From Candidatus Bathyarchaeota archaeon (GTDB taxonomy: Archaea > Thermoproteota > Bathyarchaeia > Bathyarchaeales > Bathycorpusculaceae), in contig CAVYES010000004.1 of assembly GCA_963767735.1 (NCBI GenBank), positions 512,001 to 576,000 on the forward strand: 64,000 nucleotides of DNA, given 5' to 3'. Every line of letters begins with the position of its first letter. Position 1 is the stretch's first letter. Below the pieces are notes generated by a model that was given only the letters and a program-made list of their open reading frames with translations, was not told where the DNA came from and searched no databases. Of this stretch, positions 46,515-49,878 are shown one piece after another. The translations under genes and the position numbers were made by a program.

Positions 46515-46731
46515 TGAAGCAAAAGCAAAATCAATCAAACAATAAGGCATGGTTGAAAAGCAGAAACAAAAAAAACTTTGGCGCAATATCTCCAAATAAA
46601 TGGATAATCAATGCTTGAAGAAAACAGAGACACGGAAAATTCAATTGAACAAAACTCAACACGTTAATTTTTAGTAATTTCGTTATTTGACGATAAATCC
46701 TCTGGTGCTAGTGCTCAGACCGAATTGAGAG

Positions 46732-46806
46732 TGGGCCGGACCGGATTCGGACCGGCGACCTTCTGCACGTCAAGCAGATGTCCTAACCAGGCTAGACGAC
46801 CGGCCC
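46732..46806 (-). tRNA. tRNA-Val(GAC)
   Basis: Cloverleaf GGGCCGG/CCGGCCC, anticodon arm TCTGC-TTGACGT-GCAGA; T-loop reads TCCGAAT. Confidence 0.93.
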
Positions 46807-49228: not shown

Positions 49229-49380
49229 GCCAAGAAAAATGGCAGTAGTTAGTTAATTACTTTGCTTTAAAACATACTAGTTCTTCCAATTGCTGCTACA
49301 AAAGCATCTTCGTAAAAAAATACGCGCAAACATTTTATTGAGGTAAGAACAGAATTAGCCAATTGGCGCTGGGAAATCGC

Positions 49381-49495
49381 GCCGGGATAATGCTTCGACA
49401 ATTGTTGGGCATCCCGATGGCAGAGTGGTTAACGCGCGGGCCTTGAGAGCCCGTGGATCGCAAGGTCCGCATGGGTTCGAATCCCATTCCCGGCG
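49381..49495 (+). tRNA. tRNA-Ser(TGA) with a 30-nt BHB intron at position 8/9 (49389..49418)
   Basis: Acceptor GCCGGGA/TCCCGGC-G, anticodon arm CGGGC-CTTGAGA-GCCCG, long variable arm, GGTTCGAATCC; canonical BHB at the intron junctions. Confidence 0.92.
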
Positions 49496-49878
49496 CCCTT
49501 TTTTCCAATTTTTCTTTTTCAAAAAGGCTCTGGATCTTTAGTTCCCGTTTGAAAATGAAGCCATAGCTTGCTAGTAAATTGCTTTTTCAATCGATTGGTT
49601 ATCTCAAGGGCTTGATTTGGAGGGAAATTGGAGCAAAGCTTTTAAGAATTGTGTAGATAAAAGAACGTTAACAGGGAAACGATGGGCTTAAATGGTGAGA
49701 TTAAATGTTATGAGGTTCGACACTGTGAGAGGGGCACAGGAGTTTCTGTTTAAAAAGTCAGGTTACAAAGTTTTCTTTTTTGACCCTTATCTCTACGCTG
49801 ACCTCAAGAGCCCAGAAAAACACTTTGGTTTCACATTTATTTCCGATAAAACCTATAATTTAAGGATATAGAATAAGC

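Follow-up and report, generated by a model that had tools for sequence, protein, structure and literature searches.

A leader element complementary to the 3′ acceptor strand accompanies the acceptor-proximal intron of tRNA-Ser(UGA) genes in Bathyarchaeia

The sole tRNA-Ser(UGA) gene found in the 3.04-Mb assembly of the source genome was interrupted after tRNA nucleotide 8 by an intron and carried, just upstream of its first exon, a short leader element, which we have designated L, that was complementary to the 3′ acceptor strand of the same tRNA. Introns so close to the acceptor stem create a folding conflict, since the splice motif and the most stable helix of the tRNA compete for the same bases; to our knowledge, the resolution of this conflict has not been addressed so far. 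Judged from comparison with orthologs and from predicted folds, L is probably a cis-acting folding helper with a function. Introns in acceptor-stem regions are noted in the literature (PMC12397907, PMC5829648). Non-canonical BHB introns, those in acceptor regions included, are known; L is new as far as we found.

The tRNA-Ser(UGA) gene and its leader element

All positions are those of the window, by which we mean the whole 64-kb stretch of DNA analysed. Reading of the sequence between 49200 and 49700 revealed a class II tRNA-Ser gene with the anticodon TGA; a G73 and a long variable arm are typical of tRNA-Ser. The gene and its surroundings contained the following features.

49333..49340, + strand: TATA-like box TTTTATTG, with AAACA just 5′ of the box
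49365..49375, + strand: leader element L, GGCGCTGGGAA, from sequence reading, RNA fold and wobble pattern
49376..49380, + strand: spacer ATCGC between L and exon 1
49381..49388, + strand: exon 1, GCCGGGAT, tRNA nucleotides 1-8, matching the contiguous intronless orthologs
49389..49418, + strand: 8/9 intron of 30 nt, from comparison with intronless orthologs
49419..49495, + strand: exon 2, nucleotides 9-73, with the anticodon TGA, the long variable arm and the T arm
49381-49382 with 49420-49421, + strand: exon-side helix, G1-C11 and C2-G10
49383-49386 with 49413-49416, + strand: BHB central helix, C3-G6 with CCCG
49387-49389 and 49417-49419, + strand: BHB bulges, A7-U8-a and a-u-G9
49390-49395 with 49407-49412, + strand: intron-side helix, ATGC with GCAT plus two U.G pairs
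49471-49487, + strand: T arm of exon 2
49487..49497, + strand: target of L, TTCCCGGCGCC, comprising T65, the 3′ acceptor strand, G73 and two trailer C
49488-49494, + strand: 3′ acceptor strand TCCCGGC, followed by the discriminator G73 at 49495
49499-49504, + strand: run of six T, adjoining the gene on its 3′ side

The borders of both exons and of the intron followed from intronless relatives, in which GCCGGGAT runs straight into GGCAGAG, such that exon 1 plus exon 2 corresponds to their contiguous genes. Once the intron is removed, GCCGGGA (49381-49387) pairs at 7/7 positions with TCCCGGC (49488-49494) to give the acceptor stem. The T-run is likely to be an archaeal terminator and, as it follows directly after the gene, the 3′ trailer would be very short. 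The Rfam RF00005 match (49416-49489, 37.1 bits against a threshold of 29) was limited to model positions 6-65 because the intron displaces the 5′ strand, and ARAGORN reported a tRNA-Ser with the anticodon tga at 49414-49494, with a wrong 5′ end at 49414. The hidden exon 1 escapes such standard finders, which would mis-annotate this gene. A tRNA-Val(GAC) gene of the window (46731-46806, - strand) was uninterrupted and ordinary, matching with 58.5 bits over the full model.

An hBHBh′ motif is defined by outer helices of at least 2 Watson-Crick pairs on the exon and intron sides, according to a footnote of PMC7714728. The intron fits this definition, having two 3-nt bulges with a 4-bp helix between them and both outer helices. 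Alignment of 26 intron-bearing genes showed the central helix to be invariant in 26/26, and in the intron-side helix both-sided changes were found in 3 pairs. By these sequence features the intron is an archaeal BHB (hBHBh′) intron and a predicted substrate of the splicing endonuclease. The motif engages nucleotides 1-6, which have the intron end as well as G10 and C11 as partners and can therefore not pair with the 3′ acceptor strand.

The preliminary description had proposed an 11-bp pairing between the leader and the 3′ acceptor strand, a TATA-like box upstream of it and an 8/9 BHB built on nucleotides 1-6, and each of these was borne out. GGCGCTGGGAA pairs antiparallel with TTCCCGGCGCC through 10 Watson-Crick pairs and one U.G pair (T49370 with G49492), the box is read as TTTTATTG at 49333-49340, and in the BHB C3-G6 pair with CCCG while G1 and C2 pair with C11 and G10. 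The core of L, GCTGGGA (49368-49374), reproduces the 5′ acceptor strand apart from C3, which is replaced by T. Beyond this core, GGC at the 5′ end of L pairs with G73-C74-C75 and its last A pairs with T65. The minimum-energy RNA fold of 49360-49500 joined exactly L and its target (-67.7 kcal/mol, z -3.89). An exact-seed repeat search did not list the pair; the G.U pair leaves no exact seed of 6. The wobble-tolerant pattern for 11-mers able to pair with 49487-49497, GGYGYYGGGRR, had 2 matches on both strands of the 64-kb window, namely the leader and, trivially, the complement of the 3′ strand itself, against a shuffle mean of 0.47 for the same window and strands. Arithmetic from this mean puts the chance of a match on the right strand within ~30 nt upstream of this tRNA at ~1e-4. 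In a control within the same genome, Ser(UGA) was the only one among ~33 tRNAs with a parsed T arm to have a second perfect upstream complement.

Boxes of the AAACATTTTA type were located 31-39 nt before L in intron-bearing orthologs and ~39 nt before nucleotide 1 in intronless orthologs. TTTTATTG is likely to be the archaeal promoter of the pre-tRNA, and with the spacing usual in archaea the transcript would start within a few bases of 49361-49366. If so, L, which begins the 16-nt leader and lies at or within a few bases of this predicted start, would be the extreme 5′ end of the transcript. Metatranscriptome contigs from four runs came mostly from intronless relatives and held no intron-spanning joint and no start or strand information. 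One unspliced contig from a close relative has its first base within exon 1, at 49383, and extends 104 nt beyond the gene; it may represent DNA or read-through.

Distribution and conservation of the leader element

BLAST searches covered 41 relatives and then 401 genomes of the same order; the named members of the group are Candidatus Bathyarchaeia or Bathyarchaeota MAGs and Candidatus Bathycorpusculum. Across the 401 genomes the orthologs were mostly intronless and a minority had the 8/9 intron. A pattern for the intron junction matched 28/401 genomes, and its reversed control matched 0. One of the 28 matches (L113) was not a tRNA, which leaves 27 real genes, and L was present 2-8 nt upstream of exon 1 in all 27, which belong to three families. 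A further intron-bearing gene (L192), one of 61 named syntenic loci, also had L. When 127 distinct Ser(UGA) genes were parsed in one scheme, a perfect upstream copy was seen in 22/22 genes with the 8/9 intron and in 0/105 without it, 2 of these 105 having <25 nt of upstream sequence in the parse. Five two-intron genes and one truncated locus fell outside the parse, being below its BLAST threshold or lacking a T arm, and were read separately. The upstream copy was also absent from genes that have an anticodon-loop intron only (e.g. L029, L030 and L194). Orthologs with two introns (L103, L111, L112 and L119-L122) combined the 8/9 intron with an anticodon-loop intron of 10 to ~37 nt.

Outside the order, a class-wide pattern search gave 2 matches in ~170 genomes, against 3 for the reversed-pattern control; this pattern fixes much sequence, and diverged introns would escape it. 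Another family of the order (L091-L097) has a second Ser-like tRNA gene that is heavily interrupted and starts with GCCGGGGT before diverging. It had no obvious upstream copy, and could be a counter-example or a different architecture.

Intron-bearing and intronless genes in genomes of the family adjoin the same two small protein genes. On a tree of these flanking proteins (35 loci, 4 of them intron-bearing) the intron-plus-L state required 4 changes, at least 3 of which were forced by well-supported branches. This does not prove independent evolution; 14 nt separate L from the intron, and an exchange of entire alleles is conceivable. In the window, exon 2 (49419-49495) showed 100% identity to its counterpart in another genus of the family and ~94% identity to that of its own genus (loci L037, L038 and L032), a pattern that hints at allele exchange between species at this locus. 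As L lies <60 nt from the intron, their co-occurrence could partly reflect linkage.

The sequence of L itself was compared in the 26 measurable intron-bearing genes. L paired with TCCCGGC at 7/7 positions in 23 of them and at 6/7 in 3; the latter belong to one genus and have GCCGGAA, with one A.C, preceded by GGT or GGC. The variants GCTGGGA, GTCGGGA and GCCGGGG differ by C>T or A>G exchanges, each of which leaves a wobble pair in place. The substitutions seen, C2>T, C3>T and A7>G, retained pairing, the sole exception being G6>A in the one genus. Counted over the seven positions of the core, the paired sequences numbered 26, 26, 26, 26, 26, 23 and 24/24. In 15/26 genes the L helix was extended by 3-5 further pairs into G73-C74-C75(-A76), against an extension of at most 2 by the flank of the real exon 1 in all 26.

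Alignment of the 26 precursors showed the core columns of L to be 85-100% conserved, a level of conservation like that of the exons, and gave no consensus in the spacer, the upstream flank or the intron loop; the spacer between L and exon 1 varied among orthologs in both sequence and length (2-8 nt). The 3′ acceptor strand was identical in 26/26 genes and the changes in the core of the L helix were one-sided. Two-sided covariation was absent from this core among the 26 genes because the 3′ strand never varies, and the only double change of the helix affected one outer pair in one genome. With the core kept, the flanks diverged and changes mostly neutral for pairing, L is probably under selection. 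Conservation in these alignments is the stronger argument against an explanation by kinship or linkage.

Predicted folding and a second case in tRNA-Arg(CCU)

When the window precursor was folded with its leader, the minimum-energy structure placed L on the 3′ strand and exon 1 on the intron end. Without the leader, exon 1 took the 3′ strand and the intron was reduced to a mere hairpin. The mean probability of the BHB central helix over 26 orthologs (four central pairs) was 0.87 with the leader and 0.03 without it. The preliminary description had proposed that the leader frees exon 1 for the BHB, and had suggested folding with and without the leader and co-occurrence with the intron as checks. 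The central helix was predicted at >0.5 in 25/26 orthologs with the leader and in 0/26 without, and the co-occurrence (27/27 orthologs with the intron, 0/105 parsed genes without it) points the same way; on comparative and thermodynamic grounds the core of the proposal is thus a well-supported hypothesis, and the proposal as a whole is supported in part. Native leaders exceeded the mean of composition-preserving shuffles in 26/26 orthologs (0.87 against 0.44). Because shuffled G-rich leaders already reach 0.44, part of the predicted effect is owed to G-rich composition. The minimum-energy fold of the window precursor was shifted by one pair from the ideal BHB.

After splicing in silico, nearest-neighbour energies still favoured L on the 3′ strand in 22/26 orthologs, by 3.5-9.6 kcal/mol; exon 1 won in 3/26 and 1 was a near tie. 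In these models, the exchange of L for exon 1 would have to be aided by tertiary tRNA contacts, modifications or an enzyme.

The same layout was found at another tRNA gene of the genome. tRNA-Arg(CCU) (G000:C6:581916-582039, locus L129/L131) has a 30-nt intron at 9/10 and the exon 1 GGGCGAGTA. Its leader contains GGACGGG 3-6 nt upstream of exon 1, which pairs at 6/7 positions with its own 3′ strand, CCCGCCC; the A.C mismatch was invariant. The pattern for the 9/10-intron junction matched 15/246 genomes of the family, and the leader element was present in 15/15. In another set, of 29 parsed Arg orthologs, the element was found in 5/5 with the 9/10 intron against 0/24 that were intronless or had a D-loop intron; several of the latter kept the same promoter and had a decayed element. 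The leader raised the BHB probability in 10/12 Arg genes and failed to do so in 2. By sequence and model, Arg(CCU) would be an independent second case of the layout, with a weaker predicted effect on the BHB.

The octamer GG[C/T]GCTGG occurred in 209 copies in 6.09 million positions. Of the 45 tRNA hits, exactly 3 had a copy in the 150 nt before them, namely Ser-UGA (window 49365-49372), Arg-CCU and Leu-UAA (G000:C9:60070-60300, locus L130). tRNA-Leu(UAA) was rejected as a third case: its intron is in the D loop and its leader motif ignores changes in the acceptor stem.

Proposed mechanism, rival explanations and known systems

The likeliest mechanism, which we hold to be somewhat more probable than not, is that L acts in cis as both a decoy and a splint for the 3′ acceptor strand. 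As a near-copy of the 5′ acceptor strand plus GGC, the decoy would capture the 3′ strand together with G73-C74-C75, and the captured strand could then no longer pull exon 1 out of the BHB. During cutting and ligation the L helix would prevent the 8-nt exon 1 from parting from the tRNA body. Following ligation, exon 1 would displace the decoy by strand exchange and the leader would be cut off, presumably by RNase P. That splicing should precede RNase P, as the preliminary description had it, would be a logical order within this model.

The genome has two genes with an endonuclease domain (open frames of 172 and 211 aa, in the regions G000:C2:237-482 and C4:496874-497128), which from their sequences would fit a two-subunit enzyme; the two-subunit type is reported to cleave non-canonical introns (PMC5829648). 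An Rpp30 homologue was present (82 bits, G000:C2:213553-214173) and the HARP family scored below the cut-off. Searches of the 95%-complete assembly with the archaeal and type-T models for RNase P RNA (Rfam RF00373 and RF02357) gave no match; RNase P is probably present with an RNA that escaped detection and may be divergent or unassembled.

A different view would be that L is a functionless relic, left by a ~13-nt tandem duplication at the start of the gene and carried along by linkage to the intron allele, with the differences between species due to exchange or loss of whole alleles. The similarity of L to exon 1 does exceed the 7-mer (GCGCTGGGAAAT compared with GCGCCGGGATAAT), which fits such an origin, and a syntenic locus with a patchy distribution of alleles, the identity of the window exon 2 to that of another genus and the absence of two-sided covariation are also as a relic would have them. 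However, L was kept across three families while spacer, flank and intron loop diverged beyond alignment, and its changes were biased towards those neutral for pairing. Moreover, 15/26 genes gained an extension that matches nucleotides 73-76 and is absent from exon 1, and a second tRNA, unlike Ser(UGA) in its acceptor sequence, carries a matching element of its own that has decayed in orthologs with the intron elsewhere. We consider a relic unlikely for these reasons. We also think it distinctly unlikely that L serves mainly some purpose other than enabling the BHB, either as a block on RNase P, 3′ trimming or CCA addition until splicing or as a binding or start-site element common to a few tRNA genes. 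Genes without an acceptor-proximal intron lack L yet need the same end processing, and outside the clade of the window L reads GCCGGGA, which does not contain the octamer and still tracks the 3′ strand. The restriction of the octamer to Ser-UGA, Arg-CCU and Leu-UAA among the 45 tRNA hits would suit such a role, as would its constancy in Leu, which has a D-loop intron and a changing acceptor stem, but the octamer is largely expected from complementarity to CCGGCGCC or CCGGCACC. The position of L at the predicted transcript start and its pairing with nucleotides 73-75, which are substrates of end processing, also speak for a role of this kind.

L might instead be an alternative 5′ exon or splice site that pairs with the intron end and is joined to exon 2, which we regard as very improbable. 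Like exon 1, its core (TGGG or CGGG) would be able to pair with CCCG, and two genomes (G248 and G341) have an L that matches exon 1 fully, T8 included; T8 is nevertheless missing after L in 24/26 genes, mostly replaced by A, C or G, whereas U8 of exon 1 is kept in all. The intron-side helix of the BHB lies directly 3′ of exon 1 and has no counterpart after L, and exon 1 joined to exon 2 gives what intronless orthologs have as their mature sequence. L as a true exon was rejected for its missing U8 and missing intron-side helix. Complementarity by chance, without meaning, has a negligible probability: the shortness of the arms and their absence from the exact-seed search results would suit it, but only ~1e-4 matches were expected at the site and the ortholog counts, with L in 27/27, refute it.

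If the decoy works as proposed, L would be a compact natural cis-acting RNA switch that orders processing steps, and also an annotation signature for hidden 5′ exons such as this one, the 5′ end of which ARAGORN and Rfam misplace. More tentatively, and with rather less than an even chance in our estimate, leader decoys could be a general, selected archaeal solution wherever a BHB intron borrows the 5′ acceptor strand, folding the splice site, splinting exon 1 and enforcing splicing before end maturation. A general solution of this kind would amount to a folding chaperone encoded in RNA, by which the steps of tRNA processing are put in order, and it would explain the persistence of introns at positions where they destroy the acceptor stem.

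The intron shares with archaeal BHB introns the two 3-nt bulges around a 4-bp exon-intron helix and the class of enzyme. It differs in that the Ser(UGA) intron has a conserved companion outside the mature tRNA, whereas the sources covered describe the motif and the enzyme. No leader element that pairs with the mature tRNA to free an exon strand was found in the passages covered (PMC4090602, PMC3293823, PMC4033280, PMC12397907, PMC3728597, PMC3218864, PMC7714728, PMC3241643), and one may be mentioned elsewhere.

There is a likeness to split tRNAs, of Nanoarchaeum equitans and others, and to permuted tRNAs, in which sequences outside the tRNA also pair to hold a splicing-competent structure. Leader-trailer helices there build the BHB and hold the halves together (PMC4090602, PMC4033280, PMC3293823); such a helix belongs to the BHB itself and is cut away by the endonuclease, and the tRNA is encoded by separate or permuted genes. 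In contrast, the parts of the Ser(UGA) gene lie in colinear order between a single promoter-like box and a single T-run, and L, 5 nt upstream of nucleotide 1, pairs with nucleotides 65-75 and touches neither bulge. L pairs with a part of the mature tRNA, away from the cut sites, and would have to be removed by another enzyme. A leader-trailer helix of the split or permuted kind was rejected on the grounds that the gene is colinear and the L helix does not abut the BHB. A synthetic RNase P riboswitch (PMC7897497) is similar in that the processing step that can take place depends on alternative pairings of its 5′ leader; it is an engineered system that acts on RNase P in response to a ligand, whereas L is natural and ligand-free and would act on intron excision.

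Direct repeats made by integrating elements likewise place a second copy of the end of a tRNA gene beside the gene (PMC3293823). Such repeats measure tens of bases and lie on either side of an inserted, integrase-bearing element; L, a copy of 7-11 nt, is separated from the original by 2-8 nt, and the two copies share the 5′ side of the intron with no insertion between them. With only a 2-8-nt spacer between two copies that both precede the intron, duplication of a target or attachment site was rejected as well.

Elsewhere in the genome, a tRNA-Met-like gene (G000:C5:383415-383570) has a long insertion after the anticodon arm. It also has an apparent intron inside the 3′ acceptor strand, located after TCC and before CGGCACCA.
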